From a phage: a stretch of DNA of 64,000 nt. Below the pieces are notes generated by a model. It was not told the origin of the DNA, ran no database searches, and worked only from the letters and a program-made list of their open reading frames with translations. The DNA lies in NCBI GenBank assembly GCA_016389475.1, contig GCA_016389475.1_3042.1, one strand, 5' to 3'. Below, piece by piece: positions 4,931 to 27,483 of this stretch (position 1 is its first letter; each line of letters begins with the position of its first letter). The translations under genes were made by a program, and so were the position numbers.

Positions 4931-5251
4931 TTATAGCGTAATCCATTCTCGTACTATCTGAGTTACTACACGTTCACGGGGCTCGACTAGTTCAACAGTC
5001 GGAACTGCATAATACCAGTCAGAATGATAAGAACCTGACCGAGATTCATTTACCGCTACATGTACATTATGTTTTGGACTAAAGTAAACACACTGACGAT
5101 ATTGACATTTACCATCTTGCACCCAGTCTTCTATTTCGACAGGTTTAAGATAATCGGAAAAATCGAAATCATAGTTTTCCGAAAATGCATCATGGTCTTC
5201 AATGATTTCGCTCAGAACTGCATCAACATCTAATTTATTTTCAATAGTCAT
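4931..5251 (-). CDS. hypothetical protein (106 aa)
   Basis: Clean ORF, acidic protein, early orientation. Confidence 0.5.
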   Translation of the reverse strand: MTIENKLDVDAVLSEIIEDHDAFSENYDFDFSDYLKPVEIEDWVQDGKCQYRQCVYFSPKHNVHVAVNESRSGSYHSDWYYAVPTVELVEPRERVVTQIVREWITL

Positions 5252-5650: not shown

Positions 5651-5910
5651 TTAAAGTATTCCCGCAATTGGTCAAATCCACCAATATGACTTCCATCTGG
5701 AGCGAATACCTGCGGCATTGTCAATCCAATTTGAGTATCACGACCTAGTTTAGTCAGAAGCTCAGCGATTTTCTCATCATCAAAAACACCTTTTTCCGGC
5801 ATAATGTTGATAAATTCAAACGGCTGTTTCTTCACGGTCAAAAGACGTTTTGCATTATCGCAATACACACATTTATGAATGTTGCTATCATAACCATATA
5901 CTTTAAACAT
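5647..5910 (-). CDS. nrdC: phage thioredoxin/glutaredoxin
   Basis: 87 aa, MFKVYGYDSNIHKCVYCDNAKRLL..., CVYC active site; matches T4 thioredoxin as I recall it. Confidence 0.9.
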   Translation of the reverse strand: MFKVYGYDSNIHKCVYCDNAKRLLTVKKQPFEFINIMPEKGVFDDEKIAELLTKLGRDTQIGLTMPQVFAPDGSHIGGFDQLREYFK

Positions 5911-5911
5911 A

Positions 5912-6154
5912 TTATTCCTTAATTCCTAATACTTGTTTAAAAGTCTCGTCGTAATCAAGACTTTGGCCCGTTTGTTCTTTATGTTTGTATATAATATCAC
6001 TTACTTCTGATAGCATATTTTTATATGAACGAGTTAAAGCAGATTTAAGCACGCTGTATCTATCAGGAAATTTACCATGTTCATTATAATAAGCTATTGC
6101 TAATTCACGGACTGCCTTTTCAGCAGCCTCCATATATTCTTTACGCTTGGTCAT
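5912..6154 (-). CDS. hypothetical protein (80 aa)
   Basis: ORF tightly packed after nrdC. Confidence 0.5.
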
Positions 6155-6156
6155 TT

Positions 6157-6546
6157 TTAATCCAAAATATTATTAGGCATTGGTTGAACACTCACAAGTT
6201 CTTTAAAGAACTCAGTAGAGTCAGGCAATTTAACCATTTCCGGAGCATGCTTACTGAATTTATGTTTACATTGACGGCATTTATATTCAAGCTCTGGTTT
6301 ACGCCAGTTAATCAATTGAACTTGTTCAGTACCGCATTCAGGGCAATTAGGAACGTTTTTAGAAGCTCTTTCACGTCGTTCAACCATAGCCATAATAGCA
6401 TCCCATGCTGGAGGTTTAAAATCTAAATCGTCGCAGCCGTGAATCTTTCCACGCATTTCCATATCATCTTCCTCACCAGCCATAATAATTTTAATTAAAC
6501 TGGAATTACTTGAAGCTGCAATGTCTTCTAATAAACGCTTTTTCAT
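6157..6546 (-). CDS. hypothetical protein with putative zinc ribbon (129 aa)
   Basis: CPECG ... CRQCKHKF cysteine pairs. ATGA overlap with the upstream gene. Confidence 0.5.
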
Positions 6547-7469
6547 TTCAATACCTCAATAGCATTACGTAAACCATTTGCTTTGGCGGTTAAAGCCTTA
6601 AGAACTTTAGTATGCTCTTCAATTTGTTTTTCAACTTCAGTCAAACGGACATTGAGATATTCACGTTCTTCTTTCATAGTATCATTTCCATGATTGGATT
6701 TTGGTATAGGTTTAAATTCACTAGGGTCCTTTAATTTAATAACAAATTTAGTTTCAAACAGTGAAAGACCATAATTCGTATTATCATCAAAGGATTTGAC
6801 TACATCCATATCAGATAATAACACGCGCAAATTATAAGCCAAAGAACTAATAGTTTCATTGTGTTTATTAGCTTCGCGTGGTTTCATATACGGAAGATTT
6901 TTATATATCTCATGCGGAGCGCAAACGATAATTGACAATTCAAATTGTCCATTCTGGGACGATGGAATGAATTTAGCCGTAACCCAGTCTTTTACATTCA
7001 CATTAATAGTACGGTTATCACCATGACAAAACAGTCTACGAGAATGCTTAAAAAGCATATTCACGTTATTATTGAATTCGTGTGAAAATTCACTAGCAAA
7101 TTTTTCTTTACTATCTTTAGAAAACCATTCTTCTAAATAAGTTCTTTTCACGTCGTTAATAATATTAAATGTAACAACACTAGCATTTGATACATTAGTC
7201 TTAATGTAGCTTGGATACATAAATTTTTTAACATTATTAACAGCTATCACAGAAGATAGTAATCGGGAACGTTTGAACCACTCGAGCAAAGAACCAAGAG
7301 AATGTGAATACGCATTTTGTGTATCTTTACAAATATGGTTTTCCCATCCAATATAGTCTAAAAAATCACGAAGAATATTATTGATTACTGCTCTGTGTCC
7401 GATTTGATAATTACGGTGTTTAGTAATAAGACTGTCAAAATAATCAATATAATGTTTACGAGTTTTCAT
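6543..7469 (-). CDS. hypothetical protein, paralog-family member 1 (308 aa) with C-terminal coiled-coil tail
   Basis: N-terminus MKTRKHY... resembles the neighbouring ORFs. Heptad-like C-terminal 40 aa. No recognisable catalytic motif. Confidence 0.6.
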   Translation of the reverse strand: MKTRKHYIDYFDSLITKHRNYQIGHRAVINNILRDFLDYIGWENHICKDTQNAYSHSLGSLLEWFKRSRLLSSVIAVNNVKKFMYPSYIKTNVSNASVVTFNIINDVKRTYLEEWFSKDSKEKFASEFSHEFNNNVNMLFKHSRRLFCHGDNRTINVNVKDWVTAKFIPSSQNGQFELSIIVCAPHEIYKNLPYMKPREANKHNETISSLAYNLRVLLSDMDVVKSFDDNTNYGLSLFETKFVIKLKDPSEFKPIPKSNHGNDTMKEEREYLNVRLTEVEKQIEEHTKVLKALTAKANGLRNAIEVLK

Positions 7470-7520
7470 GTTCTTCTCACTTGTTAATGATTTATACTCC
7501 GAGCCATCCTTGGCTTTAAA

Positions 7521-8522
7521 TTACTTAATTAACTGTAAAGCTTGTTCAAGACGATCCAAGCGATTAACAGATTCTTCCCAAATCTTTTTAGCCTTCTCAT
7601 ATTCTTTCTGCGCTTTATTAGAAATTTCTAGAACTTCTTTATAAGCTTTTTCTAGTGCAACAACTTCTGGACGAATTTCTACCGGTTCAAGTGAATCGTC
7701 AAGATTATCCATTAGTTCCTCAAGGGTAGTTTCTTCTTTAGGAGTATTCACAATTTCTTCGCATTTTTGTTGGTAAATTTCTTTATCAGTTAGTGAATAA
7801 GCACATTTCACTTCACGAAGACTAATTACAATTTTATATCCTTCCCAACCACCAATATTTTTGAAAGGATATGTATGAATACTTTTTACAGTTTCCATAC
7901 AATCCAAAGCCGTCTCTAATTGATGAGTTATAGTGCTAGCAATTGAGAAAAATTTATTAATATTCTTTTGGTTAGCTTCTGGTGTAAAAAATTCATAATT
8001 CACAAAAATAGCTACTTTATTTTTATCAAGCTCATATTCTTTTACGATAATCATATCAGAAGCCAAAGGATGAATTTGACGATAATCGCCATAACATAAT
8101 TTAGAAGCTGATTTTAGAATTTGTCCTTTAAAAAGTCTGAAATTACTAATCCAACGACGAGTAAAAATATTCTTAGGGTCTTCTTTGATATTAAGATGAT
8201 AAGAATTAACATCACCGAACCAATTGTATCCTATTACACCTTTAGTTCGTTTAATTTCTTTCCCAAAATTACCAAGAATATCCCGATTAACTAAATATGA
8301 AAGAAGACGAGACCCTTTAAAGATTATCTTAATATCATCTTTATCTACACGGCTAGAAATTTCACGAACTTCATGAATAAATTTACTGGAAGAAACAATA
8401 CTTGCATCAATACTGCTGAGCCATTGATTGATAATAGAAAGAACAGCATTCTGACTAGACATGGGTTTAACTTTATCATCAATAACCCTATTGAATGATT
8501 TGATATATTCGTTACGAGTCAT
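7521..8522 (-). CDS. hypothetical protein, paralog-family member 2 (333 aa from ATG 8522) with C-terminal coiled-coil tail
   Basis: GAGGAG Shine-Dalgarno before the ATG at 8522 (MTRNEYIKSF...). Early promoter immediately upstream. Confidence 0.6.
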   Translation of the reverse strand: MTRNEYIKSFNRVIDDKVKPMSSQNAVLSIINQWLSSIDASIVSSSKFIHEVREISSRVDKDDIKIIFKGSRLLSYLVNRDILGNFGKEIKRTKGVIGYNWFGDVNSYHLNIKEDPKNIFTRRWISNFRLFKGQILKSASKLCYGDYRQIHPLASDMIIVKEYELDKNKVAIFVNYEFFTPEANQKNINKFFSIASTITHQLETALDCMETVKSIHTYPFKNIGGWEGYKIVISLREVKCAYSLTDKEIYQQKCEEIVNTPKEETTLEELMDNLDDSLEPVEIRPEVVALEKAYKEVLEISNKAQKEYEKAKKIWEESVNRLDRLEQALQLIK

Positions 8523-8544
8523 ATTAATCTCCTCAGTAGAAAGT

Positions 8545-8585
8545 AAGAACATTATACCACATCCTTGTGGCAAAGTAAACTAGTT
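8545..8585 (-). promoter_or_regulatory. early sigma70-type promoter (GTTTAC-N18-TATAAT)
   Basis: Minus-strand GTTTAC at 8580..8575 and TATAAT at 8556..8551 with an 18-nt spacer and TGn extended -10; SD and ATG follow. Confidence 0.6.
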
Positions 8586-9599
8586 CAGTGCATTTAATGC
8601 ACTGTTCAGTTTAGAACGTTGCTTTGTCAGATTTTGAACCCTTGACTGAGCTTGTTCTAACGCCTTTTCAGCTTCTAGCACTTCATTGGTCGCTTTAACG
8701 AGTTCATCATCTACTGCCTTGATAGACTTCTCAATCGCATCCGCGTGCCATTTTTCAACAGGTTTAAGACTCGGATTTTCAACAGGAAGAAAATTCACTT
8801 TATTGAATTTCCATGCATCATTATTACCTGAACTATACATCCAAAATTTAGGATCGTTTGATAAGTAATTGGATAAATTTAAGTTATCTTGTACTTCCTG
8901 CTTTTTCTCTTGCGGGACTTCGTCCTTTCTCAAAAAATCGTATTTAAATGAAACGATCATATCAAGTTCATATGATGTTGTATCTAACTTAAATCGTTCA
9001 AAACGAGGTAAAATCTTAGACTGAACAGCGGCAACAACATCCATATACTTAAATGCTTCTGTCAACTGTGATTTAAGGCATTCACAAATTGAAAGAGAAT
9101 TTTTTGTATTAGGTTTAAAGCTAATTCGTGCAGTTCTATTATTTTCTTTTAATGGTCTTACTTCCATCTGAAGAGTATAACCATCAAATTTCAGGTTCTT
9201 TAAGTTATTGTCAGAACCTTTTAATCGACTAGCTGTCGACAAAATTTGCTTTAACTGTTTACGGAATAGAGCAATAAATCTCCATTCAATACGATAATGA
9301 TTGGGATTGAAAAATCCAGATGATAAATCAACCTTACTCTGACCAACACCTTGAACAAATAGAGGATTTTTATAATCAATAGTTTTACAGAAATCGGTGA
9401 GCTGCTCACGAGCAGTCATTTGTGTAATATATCCCGCTTTACTAAAATGACGTAACCATTCACTGCTATTCATATACTTAAAGTGAATGGAACTATTAAC
9501 TCTATCAGGGTCTAAATTATTTTGGCACAAAAATGTCATAACATCACGAGTATAGCTGGCATTACGAACCATATCTTCAATTTGAGAACGAGTTTTCAT
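8580..9599 (-). CDS. hypothetical protein, paralog-family member 3 (339 aa) with C-terminal coiled-coil tail
   Basis: N-terminus MKTRSQIEDMV... C-terminal heptad-like region. Confidence 0.6.
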   Translation of the reverse strand: MKTRSQIEDMVRNASYTRDVMTFLCQNNLDPDRVNSSIHFKYMNSSEWLRHFSKAGYITQMTAREQLTDFCKTIDYKNPLFVQGVGQSKVDLSSGFFNPNHYRIEWRFIALFRKQLKQILSTASRLKGSDNNLKNLKFDGYTLQMEVRPLKENNRTARISFKPNTKNSLSICECLKSQLTEAFKYMDVVAAVQSKILPRFERFKLDTTSYELDMIVSFKYDFLRKDEVPQEKKQEVQDNLNLSNYLSNDPKFWMYSSGNNDAWKFNKVNFLPVENPSLKPVEKWHADAIEKSIKAVDDELVKATNEVLEAEKALEQAQSRVQNLTKQRSKLNSALNALN

Positions 9600-9607
9600 A
9601 GTGTTCC

Positions 9608-10495
9608 TTAAGATTTAAGTAAATCAACAATTTTAATTAACTTTTCACGCTCAGATTTAGCTTTACTACTCAATCCAGATAGTCTAAAGATTTCATCGTC
9701 ATATTGTTGAATAGAAATATTCAGCTCTTCAATTTGCTTATTAAAATAATCAATTTGCTCAGAATGTTTTTCGTTACTACGAACTGGTACAGGTTTTGTA
9801 GGCAATTTAGTTGAACTGGATTCATCCGGGCGATAAATTAAAATACAACTTGAACCAATTGGACATTTTGCACCAGATGAATATTCTAATGTTCCAGATT
9901 CTTTTAAAACTTCAAAAGCTAAACAGAGATGATGACCCATATTGACATAATCAGTAGAGCAAGCTCTGATGTAATAATCATCTCCACGAGTACTAAATTT
10001 AAAGCATTTAAGGTCTTCTGTATTATTGGTCTTAAAAATCATTTGTTTATCTAGACCTTTAGCTAATCGAGCGCCTAATGCTAATAATCGTCGTTGATTT
10101 TCCCACAAATCTGCAATCATTTGGTCAAATGATAATTTTGGCATTAGTCGACCATAAAGGTCATATCCTTTATTATAATTACGAAGAATTTCACTCGCAT
10201 TAATACGAGACAATGCTCCAATTTTATTAAGGGCTTTCATGATGCGATTAGATAAACTCATTCCAGATCCGTTTGTTCGCTGTAAATGTTTTTCTAATCC
10301 AAATCCAATATCAACTTTAAATTTATCTAAAATTTCAGCATGAACATCTCTGTCAATAACATTCAAATCCAAAGTTGGGTTAAATCTATGAAAAAATTTA
10401 TCTGGCTCTCCACGACGAAGTACAGTCCATTCATTCAATTTTTTATTAACTAAAGATTTAATTACTGTATTGACATTATTAATTACTACTGACAT
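9608..10495 (-). CDS. hypothetical protein, paralog-family member 4 (295 aa from ATG 10495) with C-terminal coiled-coil tail
   Basis: GAGG before the ATG at 10495 (MSVVINNVNTVIKSL...). The track start at 10531 would overlap the upstream gene. Confidence 0.55.
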   Translation of the reverse strand: MSVVINNVNTVIKSLVNKKLNEWTVLRRGEPDKFFHRFNPTLDLNVIDRDVHAEILDKFKVDIGFGLEKHLQRTNGSGMSLSNRIMKALNKIGALSRINASEILRNYNKGYDLYGRLMPKLSFDQMIADLWENQRRLLALGARLAKGLDKQMIFKTNNTEDLKCFKFSTRGDDYYIRACSTDYVNMGHHLCLAFEVLKESGTLEYSSGAKCPIGSSCILIYRPDESSSTKLPTKPVPVRSNEKHSEQIDYFNKQIEELNISIQQYDDEIFRLSGLSSKAKSEREKLIKIVDLLKS

Positions 10496-10502
10496 ATTTT
10501 CC

Positions 10503-10910
10503 TCACTCAATTTCAATTTTACTAAATACACAGAATATGATGGAAAAGACTATATAAGCACCGCATACAGATTGAACTAATACCATTCCAAAGAACCAAA
10601 CGATATTATCAAACAATGTCTGTTTTACGTCGAAAGGACGTAAACTTACAGTAATATTATCACCTTTTTCTATTGAAGAATACATCTCTGGGGAAATATA
10701 TTCACTAAATCTATAACCGTCTTTGAGTTCATATACGGCAATAAACGATAAACTAGACCCCTTTCCTTGAGTTCCTGTAATGGTATTAACTACAGTAACA
10801 TCATAATCTTTATAATGCATATAATCATTAATAGCATAATAACCATATGCAATTACTATACATAAACAACATATCAATAAATTCAATCTTTTAATTATCA
10901 ACTGTTTCAT
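10503..10910 (-). CDS. membrane protein (135 aa), N-terminal and C-terminal hydrophobic helices
   Basis: ORF with LLICCLCIVIAYGYYAI and WFFGMVLVQSVCGAYIVFSIIFCVF segments. Confidence 0.5.
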   Translation of the reverse strand: MKQLIIKRLNLLICCLCIVIAYGYYAINDYMHYKDYDVTVVNTITGTQGKGSSLSFIAVYELKDGYRFSEYISPEMYSSIEKGDNITVSLRPFDVKQTLFDNIVWFFGMVLVQSVCGAYIVFSIIFCVFSKIEIE

Positions 10911-10965
10911 AATAATCTCAATTAAAAGGGCTTAGAACCATTATACCATCCTTGGTATAAAGCGG

Positions 10966-11493
10966 TTATGCGAGTACCGTCTTTAACCGTTCTTCAAATT
11001 TCCGAAGAGTGTTCTGGCGTTCAGCTCTTTGCTTTTTGTAAGTTTCAATACGCTCTGAAATGAGAGTGTATCGTTCATTTACTGATTCTTTCATAAAATC
11101 AGGAATTTCACGAGAAGCTTTAATCTCATCAAATTTATCAATAACAGCTTGCTCTTCAGCAATTAAGTTATCATACATTAAAATATCTTTCTTGATGAAC
11201 TCAATATCTTCTTGAGTTACACGAGATAATTTAGATGCTTTATCCTTTTTGTACTGTTCGTTAGTATCACGAGACCAGTGTAATGTACGATTTTTATTCG
11301 TATTTTTGTAAATTTCTACAATACCAATTTCATCAATAATAACGATCCAATTCCAACGGGATTTGTAAATTTGTCCTCCATCAACAGTGATTTCACCTCC
11401 GATTGAGATGTCATTAAAGAACTTGCTTTGTGCTTCAGATTTAAATTTACCGTCGTTATAATTTACCAGGTTGAAAATATCTTTAGCGTTCAT
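10966..11493 (-). CDS. hypothetical protein (175 aa) with C-terminal coiled-coil
   Basis: ORF preceded by a promoter-like element and GGAGG Shine-Dalgarno. Confidence 0.55.
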   Translation of the reverse strand: MNAKDIFNLVNYNDGKFKSEAQSKFFNDISIGGEITVDGGQIYKSRWNWIVIIDEIGIVEIYKNTNKNRTLHWSRDTNEQYKKDKASKLSRVTQEDIEFIKKDILMYDNLIAEEQAVIDKFDEIKASREIPDFMKESVNERYTLISERIETYKKQRAERQNTLRKFEERLKTVLA

Positions 11494-11551
11494 GTTTTAC
11501 CTCCAGTAGTTGATAGGTCTATAATAACATAACCATAGACCTTGTAAACAA

Positions 11552-11839
11552 CTAAAAGAAACTTTTTTCGGTATTTTTTCCACTGAACCAAACAGACTTC
11601 GGGATTTTTTGTAATTTTTCAGATTTAAGTTTCTCTTCCTGTTCTTTCTTATATACACTCTTGTCGTACTGGAGCATCTCTAGGGCATTCTTTTGCAAAC
11701 GATCTAAGGTAATTAAGGCTTTAGTTTTTCCTTTCAAGGAAGAGTCCTGGCGAACTTCCTCGCTATATTGCATCGTAGAACTAACCATACGATGTGCATA
11801 CAGTTCGACTGCGGCTTTAATTTTTTGCATAAAATCCAT
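11552..11839 (-). CDS. hypothetical protein (95 aa), lysine-rich
   Basis: ORF in early orientation. Confidence 0.45.
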   Translation of the reverse strand: MDFMQKIKAAVELYAHRMVSSTMQYSEEVRQDSSLKGKTKALITLDRLQKNALEMLQYDKSVYKKEQEEKLKSEKLQKIPKSVWFSGKNTEKSFF

Positions 11840-11977
11840 AACATATCCTCTTTGATTTGTACATCATTATTTTTAAATATTTCTATGCCCTCAGTAGGTT
11901 CCTGGTGTCCTTCTTTGAGGTAAGCCATATGATTATTCATCTTTATGGCTTTTGTTACCTCAGAACTTCCTATAAGC

Positions 11978-12946
11978 TTATTTCAGTAAAGTAACTTCCG
12001 AGATTTCTTCCCAACCATCTTTATCAGTTGAAATAAAATCTGCTACATAAAGAGCCGTACGTAATGATACATTGCGAAGACGAGATACGTTAGCCTTCAT
12101 CCAGGACAATGCTTTATACGTTTCTGCATCCGTCAGACCACGTTTCTGCATCATGTCAGTAGATAATATTACATCTTCAACTCGAACCATAATCTCTTCA
12201 TTAGAGTGTACTCCAAGGTCGAGATACACTGAACGAGATACTAAAGCTTGAAGGTGTGGAGCAAGTTTCGAACCCCGTTCTAACTCTTTATCGATATCAA
12301 CGTTTGTAATGAAAACGATAGTACCTTCAAACTCAAATTCTTTATCAATACCCTTATCCTCGAGATAAGATGACGCAGTGCTCCAACAAACTTTGCGTTT
12401 ATCTCCGGTATCTAATGCTGCTTTAAGAAGGTTCAGGATGTCCATATCTGAGAATACGTCAACGTCATCGATTAAGAGAACGCTGTCTTCATCACGGTTG
12501 AGCCAAAGTTGTTCGTAAAGGCCAATACCAGAGATTTTACCATTAATGCTTTTGTATTTGATGAAACCGTTATCATTAGCATTATTAAGTGCTTTATCCA
12601 GAGAATACGTTTTACCAATACCTGCTGCTCCCGAGATAATTAATGAACGAATGTTTCCGTTAATAATACCATTCGTCATCATTCCCATAACATTAAATCT
12701 TTTATTAATGCGGGTTTTCATATCTTCATACGATTCTTTAACTTCTTCAACTTTTACACCATCATATGAAATGTCTGATTTGTAAACCCAAACACCGCGA
12801 CGCTTACCGTCAATTTCAACAAAAACTTTACCATCTCCTTGTGCATCTACCGGAGCATTATCTGGGAACCATTCACCTAAGAGCTCAAAAGTTCCAGAGA
12901 TTTCTTTACCGAAGTAGATACCCTTATTGATAGTTACAGTTTTCAT
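11978..12946 (-). CDS. P-loop NTPase (AAA-like ATPase), 322 aa from ATG 12946
   Basis: Walker A GAAGIGKT(Y)S and Walker B-like hhhhDDVD (VLLIDDVDVF). GGAG before the ATG at 12946. Confidence 0.65.
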   Translation of the reverse strand: MKTVTINKGIYFGKEISGTFELLGEWFPDNAPVDAQGDGKVFVEIDGKRRGVWVYKSDISYDGVKVEEVKESYEDMKTRINKRFNVMGMMTNGIINGNIRSLIISGAAGIGKTYSLDKALNNANDNGFIKYKSINGKISGIGLYEQLWLNRDEDSVLLIDDVDVFSDMDILNLLKAALDTGDKRKVCWSTASSYLEDKGIDKEFEFEGTIVFITNVDIDKELERGSKLAPHLQALVSRSVYLDLGVHSNEEIMVRVEDVILSTDMMQKRGLTDAETYKALSWMKANVSRLRNVSLRTALYVADFISTDKDGWEEISEVTLLK

Positions 12947-13060: not shown

Positions 13061-14074
13061 TCATTTATAATAACTTCGGTGGTTTTCAAGATAGACCTTC
13101 TCAAGGAAGTCATCCCAGAAACCCATGTCTACTTTTTGCTGCATACCGTTCTTAGAAGCTTCAGTAGATGCTGCTTCTACTTGATCGACCACATCTTCCA
13201 AAAACTCTTGAACTGTTTTAAATGGATGTTTACCCAACTTCACGTCGAGAATAAATGGAGCATCTTGGAGTGGATAAACCAAGTCACCAGTTTTGTAAAT
13301 TTCCAATAGTTGGAGTCCACCACGACAAGCATGACTCAGAGCTTTCCAGTCAATGCCTTCATTAGCTTCGGCTTTACGAGCACGTTCACCATATTCAGCA
13401 TCTAATTTATTCAGTGACTGCTTAAGCTCAATAAGAGAAAGTGTTGTCTGATATTTACGACCCAACACAGTGTAGAACGTTTGCGGGCCTGTTTTCTCGT
13501 GATTATGGAACACCCATTCACAGAATTCGTTTTCTGGAAGACGATGCTTAATATCTTCAACTTTAGTGCGACGCTGCTTAATAGAACCATCTTCTTGGTA
13601 ATCAACCCATTGCTCGGGGATTTGATTAACTACTTTCAATACATCACGTAATGCAGCCAAACGAGAACCCTTGACACCGTATTTAGAAGCTTGCTTGCGA
13701 ACATATCCTAAATAGGATTTCATGTTAGTCGTATAAAAACGAGAACGGTTGTCTTGAATAAACTTCCACACATCAGGCAAATCAGATTTAACCACTAGTT
13801 CAGGTGGAGTGTGAAGCATATCCAATGCTACAGTTTCACCATCTGCTGCTAATTTAAAGAAATATTTAAGACTGTATAGTTCATGGTCAATATCATCTTT
13901 AGTGTTTTTAGATGATGTGTTGTTAGTGTTTTTACTCATGTGCTCTTTGACATTTCCGATAAGAATATCACGAGCAGGAGGAACAAAAATTTCTTTAAAA
14001 TCTACATCAGATTCTGGGGTAGAAGTTCCATAAAGATGACTACCAAAATAGCTTTTCATTACTGTTTTCATCAT
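13061..14074 (-). CDS. Pol-beta-superfamily nucleotidyltransferase-like protein (337 aa)
   Basis: N-terminal G-S-x10-D-V-D (FGSHLYGTSTPESDVDF) with a downstream acidic residue in a hydrophobic strand (ETVALDMLH), followed by a roughly 230-aa helical region. ATGA overlap with the upstream membrane-protein gene. Confidence 0.55.
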   Translation of the reverse strand: MMKTVMKSYFGSHLYGTSTPESDVDFKEIFVPPARDILIGNVKEHMSKNTNNTSSKNTKDDIDHELYSLKYFFKLAADGETVALDMLHTPPELVVKSDLPDVWKFIQDNRSRFYTTNMKSYLGYVRKQASKYGVKGSRLAALRDVLKVVNQIPEQWVDYQEDGSIKQRRTKVEDIKHRLPENEFCEWVFHNHEKTGPQTFYTVLGRKYQTTLSLIELKQSLNKLDAEYGERARKAEANEGIDWKALSHACRGGLQLLEIYKTGDLVYPLQDAPFILDVKLGKHPFKTVQEFLEDVVDQVEAASTEASKNGMQQKVDMGFWDDFLEKVYLENHRSYYK

Positions 14075-26949: not shown

Positions 26950-27483
26950 TTATATCATGCTATTTAAGAGATGTAAACTATTTTTAATTTTACAAATTCG
27001 TTCAGCTTCTTCAACAGCGGCAGTGATAATGCTTTTAGCTATAGGAGTACTAATACTAGTAGCTTTTACACTTAACACGATTTCTTTATCTTTACCAGGC
27101 CAACCCCACGATTTTTCACCATGAGTGCCTTTAATTACAGCAGACACCTCAAGTGAGCATCCATTATCACATGTTTTTACATTAACAACCCAAGTGTCAC
27201 TTTTCTCAACCGGTTTATCCCAGTAAATATTGAGAATACGCGGGACATCAAATTTAGCAGGGCAAATCTTAACCGTAAGACCTTCGCTTTCTAGCCAATT
27301 AATAAGAGGACGTTCATACATGCGGCGATGTGGGCTTTGAACTCGACAAGCCTTGTACCCATTGCTTGCGGCTTCACTAAGCTCTTCTAATACCTGCTTT
27401 TGCATTATTGATAAGATACCATCAAAAGATTTTTCGGAAGTTTCATTCAGTTCGGTATAAAGAGACATAACAGTTTTCCTCAA
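26950..27483 (-). CDS. hypothetical protein (177 aa)
   Basis: Track ORF. Confidence 0.5.
   Translation of the reverse strand: MRKTVMSLYTELNETSEKSFDGILSIMQKQVLEELSEAASNGYKACRVQSPHRRMYERPLINWLESEGLTVKICPAKFDVPRILNIYWDKPVEKSDTWVVNVKTCDNGCSLEVSAVIKGTHGEKSWGWPGKDKEIVLSVKATSISTPIAKSIITAAVEEAERICKIKNSLHLLNSMI

Follow-up and report, generated by a model that had tools for sequence, protein, structure and literature searches.

The nrdC.3 to nrdC.8 region

On the basis of its sequence, the window (the whole stretch of 64,000 nucleotides of phage DNA analysed here) is a Tequatrovirus (T4-like coliphage) genome, in which positions 6543–11493 correspond to nrdC.3, nrdC.4, nrdC.5, nrdC.6, nrdC.7 and nrdC.8, the gene names being taken from the annotation of RB51, whose DNA is 96.5% identical. 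An earlier sequence-only reading had described minus-strand ORFs of 308, 333, 339, 295 and 175 aa with a membrane protein embedded among them, and all of these were found. The six ORFs of the array, all on the minus strand in a region of 32–33% G+C, and two sigma-70-like promoter matches from a consensus scan are as follows:

6543..7469, minus strand: nrdC.3, 308 aa; family member and most variable copy; phrog_1435
7521..8522, minus strand: nrdC.4, 333 aa from ATG; central family member
8551..8579, minus strand: sigma-70-like promoter match in the gap upstream of nrdC.4; TTTACT, 17 nt spacer, TATAAT, with TG
8580..9599, minus strand: nrdC.5, 339 aa; orthologue of the T4 anti-Dsr1 factor; Pfam DUF7235
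9608..10495, minus strand: nrdC.6, 295 aa; probable family member on structural evidence
10503..10910, minus strand: nrdC.7, 135 aa; membrane protein outside the family; phrog_2547
10966..11493, minus strand: nrdC.8, 175 aa; different head family, similar coiled-coil tail
11521..11548, minus strand: sigma-70-like promoter match in the gap upstream of nrdC.8; TTTACA, 16 nt spacer, TATTAT, with TG

The nrdC.4 frame can also be read as a longer ORF, of 343 or 350 aa. Both promoter matches are weak evidence, because promoter-like sites in the array region were not enriched over shuffles. The embedded membrane protein, nrdC.7, has two membrane segments, with hydrophobic stretches at its N- and C-termini, lacks a heptad tail and is unrelated to the family; it adjoins nrdC in RB69, is absent from JS98, MN01 and VR7, and is a bystander in the array.

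Relationships among the large proteins

The five large ORFs had been read as one diversified paralog family, to be examined by profile alignment, and this held for four of them: nrdC.3, nrdC.4 and nrdC.5 by profiles and, with less certainty, nrdC.6 on indirect evidence, with nrdC.8 falling outside. In hhalign comparisons, nrdC.3 and nrdC.4 were related with 98% probability (E 1e-13, residues 2–231 against 1–219, that is, over the heads), nrdC.4 and nrdC.5 with 85% probability (E 6e-6, also over the head domains), and nrdC.3 and nrdC.5 aligned colinearly at E 5e-3, while every comparison with the neighbouring genes nrdC.2, nrdC.7, nrdC.9 and nrdC.10 gave E > 0.1. The similar N-termini noted earlier in three genes were seen in nrdC.3 and nrdC.5 (MKTR) and nrdC.4 (MTRNEY), with T2 and R3 invariant in 49 nrdC.3/4/5-type sequences; this start is not shared by nrdC.6 and nrdC.8. 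In addition, a syntenic pair of such genes is present in Acinetobacter phage Acj61.

Existing catalogues divide these proteins in different ways. In Pfam, nrdC.5 matched DUF7235 (PF23882) over its full length with 401 bits (E 5e-120; gathering score 30 bits), nrdC.3 reached only 15.1 bits, below that cut-off and over tail residues 252–308 only, and nrdC.4, nrdC.6 and nrdC.8 gave no match to this HMM. Since DUF7235, for nrdC.5 alone, was the only Pfam assignment and NCBIfam returned nothing above cut-off, the earlier statement that the proteins lack recognisable catalytic motifs agrees with our searches. PHROGs lists these proteins under phrog_1435, phrog_2351, phrog_2257 and phrog_2274, all labelled as of unknown function, and merges nrdC.3 and nrdC.4 in phrog_1435, yet separates nrdC.5 and nrdC.6. 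nrdC.3, nrdC.4 and, probably, nrdC.6 are superfamily-level relatives of nrdC.5 that lie outside the Pfam family DUF7235, the head identity of the paralogues to nrdC.5 being only about 20–25%. The phrog_1435 merger, like the anti-Dsr1 activity of T4 nrdC.5, was already known; the superfamily of nrdC.3, nrdC.4, nrdC.5 and nrdC.6 is proposed here.

The membership of nrdC.6 is suggested by indirect evidence through intermediates, since its direct profile comparison with the family gave no significant match. Two profiles formed weak bridges: that of phiR1-RT g087 aligned in consistent register with nrdC.6 at E 4.9e-4 and with nrdC.3 at E 9.2e-4, and an Enterobacter 00081 profile matched nrdC.6 with 72% probability. 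In AlphaFold2 models, fourteen secondary-structure elements of nrdC.6 (pLDDT 77.5) occur in the order of those of nrdC.4 (pLDDT 84), whose model comprises a head (residues 1–258), a disordered segment (259–284) and a helix (285–332). Foldseek searches with the two models did not directly match each other's family, but five BFVD proteins were matched by both in full-length alignments; the E values lay between 5e-8 and 3e-5 with the nrdC.4 model and between 5e-7 and 3e-2 with that of nrdC.6, for which four of the five were below 1e-3. As a separate observation, a portion of the nrdC.4 head is similar to phage proteins of the tail-terminator type; an assignment as a tail terminator or tail completion protein (gpU-like; lambda gpU 3fz2, T5 p142, Mu, SPP1 gp17-like) was rejected when judged on a shared fold with a strong structural score together with a place in the tail module.

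No paralogy could be demonstrated for nrdC.8, which has no profile link to the others and whose N-terminal domain comes from a different family. A phmmer search of 1.84 billion representatives gave 37 matches, mostly 150–240 aa long and all through residues 1 to about 95–125, and one homologue carries PF26901 (Phage_T4_Y05D). By these matches, nrdC.8 is a member of a separate, wider family (PF26901) that has only the head-plus-coil layout in common with the array. One distant homologue sits three genes from ArdA.

These data bear on whether nrdC.3 to nrdC.6 form one family at all. They might instead be unrelated hypothetical proteins of similar size with independently acquired coiled-coil tails, the links to nrdC.5 and nrdC.6 being false positives, and the modest nrdC.3–nrdC.5 score, the lack of a direct significant match for nrdC.6, the Pfam division into PF26897 (nrdC.4 homologues), PF23882 (nrdC.5) and PF26899 (nrdC.6 homologues), and nrdC.8 itself, an unrelated head with the same type of tail, would all fit such a view. 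However, the nrdC.3–nrdC.4 and nrdC.4–nrdC.5 alignments are colinear and run over heads rather than tails at scores that no neighbouring gene approached, and the full-length shared Foldseek targets, the invariant TR of nrdC.3, nrdC.4 and nrdC.5, the Acj61 gene pair and the common tail register and terminal motif described below likewise argue against it, so that we give it little credence.

C-terminal heptad tails

The heptad-like C-termini that had been reported for all five large proteins were borne out by a heptad score, a crude purpose-made measure distinct from COILS and MARCOIL, which gave its highest value, as expected, for the positive control fibritin, a known coiled coil. Each protein ends in a Pro/Gly-poor helix of 45–50 residues whose hydrophobic residues show significant heptad periodicity: over the last 42 residues, the best-register score exceeded same-residue shuffles in all five (p ≤ 0.013), and the neighbours nrdC.2, nrdC.7, nrdC.9 and nrdC.10 gave p > 0.1 in the same test. 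With profile relationships found and the C-terminal heptad pattern significant, neither of the outcomes that the sequence-only reading had named as refuting it was observed. The best 28-residue window of each protein lay within its last 60 or so residues and ranked in the top 1% of all windows; in nrdC.6 this window starts at residue 245, its last 42 residues scoring 8.8 (cut-off 9.1). The five tails are located as follows:

6546..6686, minus strand: heptad tail of nrdC.3, about residues 262–308; ends LRNAIEVLK; p < 0.001 against shuffles
7527..7670, minus strand: C-terminal helix of nrdC.4, residues 285–332 (AlphaFold2); ends LEQALQLIK
8583..8732, minus strand: heptad tail of nrdC.5, about residues 290–339; ends LNSALNALN
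9614..9763, minus strand: C-terminal helix of nrdC.6, residues 245–294 (AlphaFold2, pLDDT 86–90); ends LIKIVDLLKS; p = 0.0025
10969–11112, minus strand: predicted coiled-coil tail of nrdC.8, residues about 128–175; p < 0.001

The signal was strongest in nrdC.5 (z 5.4–6.5); that of nrdC.4 reached p = 0.013 when scored across 42 aa and p = 0.004 across 49 aa, with a pLDDT of only 66–81 for its tail helix. Measured to the C-terminus, the register is identical in nrdC.3, nrdC.4 and nrdC.5 and one residue off in nrdC.6, and the tails of all four share a terminal L-x-x-(A/I/V)-(L/I/V)-x-x-L-K motif, which in its strict form occurs five times in the 19,282 residues encoded in the window, three of these being the ends of nrdC.3, nrdC.4 and nrdC.5. 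From the periodicity, together with a predicted helix that stands isolated in the monomer models, we infer that the tails would pair as coiled coils in an oligomer.

The tails could in principle be a functionless by-product of AT-rich codons (K, E, N, L, I) or of ribosome-binding-site constraints, given the low G+C content and the fact that two of them overlap or abut the translation start of the next gene. Such an explanation is largely refuted and, in our view, very improbable: shuffling of the same residues destroys the signal, and only 2 of the 82 other genes of the window have a top-1% heptad window in their last 42 residues. A constraint from the downstream ribosome-binding site, which had been supposed for every C-terminus, is possible for nrdC.3, which overlaps the start of nrdC.2, and for nrdC.6, with a gap of 8 nt, but not for the other three, where 51–57 nt lie between the tail and the next gene. 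Moreover, in diverged orthologues conservation is higher in the tail than in the head, with identities of 76–84% against 56–58% for nrdC.3, 63–65% against 39–51% in the Dhaka/Gaprivervirus orthologues of nrdC.4, and 59–71% against 26–41% for nrdC.6 in other genera. In distant phages, the same tail is confined to syntenic genes of about 300 aa.

Variation and possible function

A comparison across T4-like genera, which the sequence-only reading had proposed, showed that copy number varies from 0 to 4. The nrdC.3 alleles fell below 80% identity in 518 of 658 phage records, some being only 55–62% identical within a genus whose members otherwise share about 95% identity. The dN/dS values were 0.30 for nrdC.3, 0.20 for nrdC.5, a similar 0.19 for nrdC.4, 0.10 for nrdC.6 and 0.04 for nrdC.8; since all are below 1, positive selection leaves no signal at the level of whole genes. 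In addition, nrdC.6 retains 95–99% identity in most records and nrdC.8 at least 99% in 403 records, and such strong conservation within the genus is not typical for arms-race genes. nrdC.8 may be a functionally analogous neighbour of the array.

When T4 nrdC.5 is supplied in trans, Dsr1-carrying cells can be infected again, Dsr1 being an NADase sirtuin defence that T4 NrdC.5 overcomes (Srikant, Guegler & Laub, eLife 2022; PMC9391042). The nrdC.5 product of the window, about 95% identical to T4 NrdC.5, is its orthologue, and those of nrdC.3, nrdC.4 and, less certainly, nrdC.6 have a like architecture and, as far as tested, a like fold. The suggestion that the array follows an anti-defence pattern fits this published activity, which concerns that one member. 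Because T4 NrdC.5 has been published as a Dsr1-overcoming factor, the most likely reading is that nrdC.3 to nrdC.6 are tandem diverged copies of a T4-like accessory protein serving as an early counter-defence battery, a reading that we hold on balance to be probable. For the same reason, nrdC.3, nrdC.4 and nrdC.6 are good candidates for anti-immunity factors, and we infer that they too counter host defence and would act by direct binding. Each copy is built of three parts: a globular head (about 230–260 residues) that evolves fast, a flexible linker (about 25 residues) and, at the C-terminus, an amphipathic helix of 45–50 residues that is conserved. The proteins would be expressed early, the tail would oligomerise them, and the heads would each bind and silence a different sensor of host immunity or a different variant of such a sensor.

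It is possible, though rather unlikely, that the genes are true paralogues but modulators of host takeover or housekeeping, acting on host transcription, the nucleoid or metabolic proteins, the effect of NrdC.5 on Dsr1 being special or indirect. Experimental function is available for nrdC.5 only, the proteins show no similarity to known anti-defence families in Pfam, NCBIfam or PHROGs, and the conservation of nrdC.6 and nrdC.8 would suit such a role. On the other hand, the array genes are dispensable and differ in presence between genera, a deletion removing nrdC.5 is viable on K-12 in the laboratory (PMC9391042), allele replacement as seen in nrdC.3 is typical of host-range loci, and other published counter-defence genes lie among the neighbours, for example that of Gp49.2 (4931–5251 in the window), a published OLD inhibitor (PMC13096335).

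A further, unlikely variant is that the heads are structural decoys and the array a panel of mimics, made early, that would occupy pattern-recognition sensors ahead of the genuine late proteins. It draws on the likeness of part of the nrdC.4 head to tail-terminator-type proteins and on the recognition of conserved folds of virion proteins by Dsr1 and many Avs sensors, through TPR-like sensor domains. If the heads were decoys, the tails would allow homo-oligomers or even mixed hetero-oligomers, and a multi-headed particle could block several sensors with high avidity.

For the preferred counter-defence battery, a mechanistic model may be drawn by analogy from DSAD1 of SPbeta-like phages, which binds and inhibits the DSR2 sirtuin defence and is likewise a phage protein directed against a SIR2-domain NADase sensor; we suggest that NrdC.5 may bind in the same manner. 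DSAD1 differs, however, in phage group and in target defence protein; the likeness lies in mode of action and not in family. Within the T-even phages, the dmd–tifA–adfA anti-toxin island, Gp49.2 and IPIII are likewise non-essential, variable and clustered in hyperplastic regions, each being adapted to a single defence of the host (PMC9391042; PMC13096335). The clustered counter-defence genes of T-even phages are mostly small and mutually unrelated, whereas the array described here would comprise four neighbouring paralogues with a shared oligomerisation-type tail.

Gene content and paralogy of the nrdC.3–nrdC.8 array

The window comes from a Tequatrovirus, a T4-like coliphage; its bases 6000–12000 match 742 phage records at a best identity of 96.9%. 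In the RB51 annotation, the minus-strand genes at 6543–11493 are nrdC.3, nrdC.4, nrdC.5, nrdC.6, nrdC.7 and nrdC.8, flanked by nrdC (glutaredoxin) and nrdC.10/nrdC.11; the region is already annotated in T-even genomes, and a function has been published for one member. Our ORF calls matched exactly the positions and lengths given by the sequence-only reading. RB51 likewise uses the 333-aa start of nrdC.4 (MTRNEY), which lines up with the MKTR starts of nrdC.3 and nrdC.5. The resemblance of N-termini noticed earlier holds for these three genes, with T2 and R3 being invariant in 49 sequences of the three types. Genes around the array are as follows.

4931-5251, minus strand: 106-aa ORF, gp49.2 in the RB51 annotation, six genes downstream of the array
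6157-6546, minus strand: nrdC.2, with a zinc-ribbon signature (CPECG…CRQC) and a weak Pfam Zn_ribbon match
11552-11839, minus strand: gene at the nrdC.9 position, matching Pfam DUF7203 (E 6e-23)
11978-12946, minus strand: nrdC.10, with weak matches to AAA/STAND-type NTPases
13061-14074, minus strand: nrdC.11, annotated as a nucleotidyltransferase

Pairwise BLASTP among nine neighbouring proteins gave a single match, between nrdC.3 and nrdC.4 (26% identity over 168 residues, 32 bits), and when each protein was searched by tblastn in 50,697 phage records, no genome was hit at more than one place, indicating that the paralogy is invisible at this level. Profiles of each family, drawn from alignments of 15 Tequatro-, Mosig-, Dhaka- and Gaprivervirus loci with added database homologues, were compared by hhalign. 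The relationship proposed from the sequence was recovered between nrdC.3 and nrdC.4 (98% probability, E 1e-13, residues 2–231 versus 1–219) and between nrdC.4 and nrdC.5 (85% probability, E 6e-6, residues 74–256 versus 58–235), and nrdC.3 aligned colinearly with nrdC.5 (E 5e-3), whereas all comparisons with the neighbour genes nrdC.2, nrdC.7, nrdC.9 and nrdC.10 gave E > 0.1. These alignments span the N-terminal globular domains (heads), not the C-terminal helices (tails). In PHROGs, nrdC.3 and nrdC.4 already share one family, phrog_1435, and Pfam has separate families for nrdC.4 (PF26897), nrdC.5 (PF23882/DUF7235) and nrdC.6 (PF26899). NCBIfam searches found nothing, PDB sequence searches found no relative with a solved structure, and a search for related loci returned close relatives only. 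Judged from the profiles, nrdC.3, nrdC.4 and nrdC.5 are very probably paralogues.

For nrdC.6, hhalign found no significant direct link, even with sensitive settings and added secondary structure. In sensitive and global modes its best match was nrdC.5 (E 1e-3), and with AlphaFold-derived secondary structure its match to nrdC.4 was still non-significant, rotated-structure controls giving similar scores. The AlphaFold2 models of nrdC.4 (pLDDT 84) and nrdC.6 (pLDDT 77.5) have the same layout, with 14 secondary-structure elements in the same order; the closest match begins at a helix pair (residues ~120–145) and runs through two β-hairpins and the intervening long helix, beyond which both models have a disordered linker and then a single C-terminal helix. 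Foldseek searches of BFVD did not match either model directly to the other's family, but both matched the same five proteins, from Enterobacter phage IME523, Pectobacterium phage PM2, Acinetobacter phage fHyAci03, Yersinia phage fHe-Yen9-01 and Serratia phage PS2, all aligned full-length (E 5e-8 to 3e-5 for nrdC.4; 5e-7 to 3e-2 for nrdC.6, four of the five below 1e-3). For Acj61, an Acinetobacter phage, the target of the nrdC.4 model was E5E4A1 (330 aa) and that of the nrdC.6 model E5E4A2 (304 aa), lengths equal to those of the adjoining genes p120 and p121, which lie between nrdC.10 and nrdC. Two small profiles bridge the families: that of Yersinia phage phiR1-RT g087 matched both nrdC.6 (E 4.9e-4) and nrdC.3 (E 9.2e-4), the register of both agreeing with the structural mapping, and that of Enterobacter 00081 matched nrdC.6 (72% probability, E 3.5e-5, 202 columns). 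Taken with a terminal motif common to the other array tails, in which nrdC.6 also ends, the models, shared targets and bridging profiles make homology of nrdC.6 to nrdC.3, nrdC.4 and nrdC.5 likely.

The remaining large gene, nrdC.8, is a different protein of similar layout, its head showing no link to the other heads in any profile comparison, sensitive and global modes included. Scanning 1.84 billion representatives in full with HMMER yielded 37 relatives, all matching through the N-terminal ~95–125 residues and ~150–240 aa long except for one of 533 aa (matched region 342–474); those inspected have helical tails too. One distant homologue, P0229, matches Pfam PF26901 (Phage_T4_Y05D); on its 9-kb metagenomic contig (L021), an ArdA anti-restriction gene is found three genes upstream of it.

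L021 816-1334 and 2768-3283: nrdC.8 homologue P0229 and the ArdA gene

The diversified paralog family suggested by the sequence-only reading is thus upheld for nrdC.3, nrdC.4 and nrdC.5 by profile links and probably extends to nrdC.6 on indirect evidence, but does not include nrdC.8. The small protein nrdC.7, with hydrophobic stretches at both ends, was rejected as a member of the system and is a bystander: where it lies, and whether it is there at all, does not follow the array, as it adjoins nrdC in RB69 and is missing from JS98, MN01 and VR7.

Heptad periodicity and conservation of the tails

Periodicity was scored by a simple heptad measure, for which fibritin, a known coiled coil, served as positive control and ranked top. 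In each of the five large proteins the best 28-residue segment lay within the last ~60 residues and was among the top 1% of all segments; that of nrdC.6 starts at residue 245, its last 42 residues alone scoring 8.8 versus a cut-off of 9.1. Only two of the 82 other genes in the window had such a segment in their last 42 residues. Shuffling the tail residues abolished the signal (p ≤ 0.013 for every tail, mostly ≤ 0.0025), bearing out the heptad-like ends described earlier, whereas neighbour genes showed no tail signal against shuffles (p > 0.1). The idea that the downstream ribosome-binding site constrains the extreme C-termini is possible for nrdC.3 and nrdC.6 only, the gaps of the others being 51–57 nt.

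Counted from the C-terminus, nrdC.3, nrdC.4 and nrdC.5 have an identical heptad register, from which nrdC.6 (ending LIKIVDLLKS) and nrdC.8 (FEERLKTVLA) are shifted by one residue. The tails of nrdC.3, nrdC.4, nrdC.5 and nrdC.6 end in a shared motif, L-x-x-(A/I/V)-(L/I/V)-x-x-L-K. Among the 19,282 residues of the window its strict form occurs five times, and three of these occurrences are the ends of nrdC.3 (LRNAIEVLK), nrdC.4 (LEQALQLIK) and nrdC.5 (LNSALNALN). The motif also ends Acj61 p120 (LNKALEIMML) and phiR1-RT g087 (LQESLRTLK), and stands 4–7 residues before the end in Acj61 p121, phiR1-RT g098 and Enterobacter 00081. One further strict match was set aside.

26950-27468, minus strand: 172-aa e.x-region protein ending IKNSLHLLNSMI, with a heptad score of only 8.3; the match is probably due to chance

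When eight closer loci were re-scanned, every ORF at the heptad cut-off was an array gene, with several nrdC.6-type tails (7.3–9.0) and the JS98 nrdC.4 (8.9) just below it; in five distant loci, the cut-off was reached only by five genes of ~290–330 aa near nrdC.10/nrdC. In diverged orthologues the tails are more conserved than the heads, with identities of 76–84% versus 56–58% for nrdC.3, 63–65% versus 39–51% for nrdC.4 and 59–71% versus 26–41% for nrdC.6. The conserved tail offers a concrete handle for mutagenesis. The RB69 gene annotated nrdC.5 (L012 9642-10544) has a non-helical end and lacks the coil tail; its orthologue in Mosigvirus SF (L014 5976–6935) has a normal tail (…LFNAMNALKS), and a frameshift or sequencing error is the probable cause of the loss in RB69.

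Variation across T4-like phages

Gene number varies between genera of T-even relatives, as had been asked of these genes from the sequence.

Array genes and coil-tailed copies in T4-like phages
Tequatrovirus: nrdC.3, nrdC.4, nrdC.5, nrdC.6, nrdC.8
Mosigvirus: nrdC.3, distant nrdC.5, nrdC.6, nrdC.8
Dhaka- and Gaprivervirus: nrdC.4, distant nrdC.5, nrdC.6, nrdC.8
Coil-tailed copies: Acj61, two; phiR1-RT, two; a Karamvirus, one

The corresponding region of Klebsiella phage KPV15 and Cronobacter phage leN yielded neither a coil-tailed gene nor a family-HMM match, and family HMMs against the ORFs of five distant T4-like genera found almost nothing, with one match to nrdC.6 (E 1e-4). Alleles vary as well: nrdC.3 was less than 80% identical to the copy in the window in 518 of 658 records, with flanking genes being ~95% identical. 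The dN/dS values of 0.30 (nrdC.3), 0.20 (nrdC.5), 0.19 (nrdC.4), 0.10 (nrdC.6) and 0.04 (nrdC.8) are all below 1, indicating real genes under purifying selection, and gave no sign of gene-wide positive selection.

Two homologues show that the array is still rearranging. P0224, from a 167-kb contig, is a natural in-frame nrdC.5::nrdC.3 hybrid with nrdC.4 deleted, in which nrdC.5 residues ~146–270 run into the latter half of an nrdC.3 allele; the two meet at a short FN..VN.L stretch present in both, suggesting unequal recombination between paralogues. P0064, a 378-aa nrdC.6 from Shigella phage Sf25, carries an 83-residue segment (IRAHSTDY…NKQIEEL) twice in tandem within its length. Differences of allele and copy number could go some way towards explaining why host range differs among therapeutic T4-like phages.

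Counter-defence context and neighbouring genes

T4 is the best-studied lytic phage, but most of its accessory genes have no assigned function. To our knowledge, NrdC.5 is the only known Dsr1 antagonist of T4. Our analyses show four genes of head–linker–helix architecture, three homologous by profile and the fourth, nrdC.6, probably so, with a periodic conserved tail and variable heads, and the anti-Dsr1 activity of one member, T4 NrdC.5, is established: a T4 clone with compensatory deletions lost infection of ECOR17 owing to Dsr1, and the early gene nrdC.5 supplied in trans restored plating on Dsr1-carrying cells (Srikant, Guegler and Laub, eLife 2022, PMC9391042). The nrdC.5 of the window is ~95% identical to that of T4. 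The TPR sensor of Dsr1, which Avs7 shares, is reported to recognise the phage major capsid protein (2026 preprint, PMC12803255), and T6 Gp49.2 is reported to inhibit the OLD defence system (2026 paper, PMC13096335); gp49.2, pin (Lon inhibitor) and nrdC.5 make the neighbourhood rich in counter-defence genes. Searches of the literature turned up neither a description of nrdC.3–6 as paralogues or a family nor a mechanism for NrdC.5.

We propose that the four proteins may be made early in infection, that the tail would oligomerise them, and that each head would bind a host immune protein and block its activation, the putative target of the NrdC.5 head being Dsr1. Direct binding and coiled-coil oligomerisation acting jointly is a tentative scheme, about which we are more doubtful than confident; that NrdC.3, NrdC.4 and NrdC.6 are counter-defence factors is the somewhat favoured reading. 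The host-range, exclusion or anti-defence role suggested from the sequence would apply to four genes, nrdC.6 by indirect evidence, and not to nrdC.8. If NrdC.5 is one of four tandem paralogues, the other three become specific candidates for new counter-defence activities and, if so, their relatives in Acinetobacter, Yersinia, Enterobacter, Pectobacterium and Serratia phages are candidates too. The finding extends a known system and does not represent a new kind; to what was known it adds the relatedness of these genes, the conserved tail with its motif and the distribution of the family among T4-like phages.

Among the neighbours, nrdC.2 overlaps the nrdC.3 stop by 4 nt, suggesting translational coupling. 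The gene at the nrdC.9 position is only ~27% identical to nrdC.9 in the other Tequatrovirus loci fetched, and among the 30 top-ranked matching phages listed DNA similarity ends near position 11591, so that this slot holds a different allele or gene. The nrdC.11 gene occurs in phages of Vibrio, Aeromonas and Acinetobacter among others (1,518 phage records), with conservation far above that of the adjoining array. A promoter scan located plausible sites 5' of nrdC.4 and nrdC.8 and found no enrichment of promoter-like sites in the array region over shuffles. Terminator-like hairpins were more frequent at 5800-12100 than expected from shuffles (7 versus 1.8), and one on the minus strand (8572–8555), in the gap between nrdC.5 and nrdC.4, overlaps a promoter-like site.
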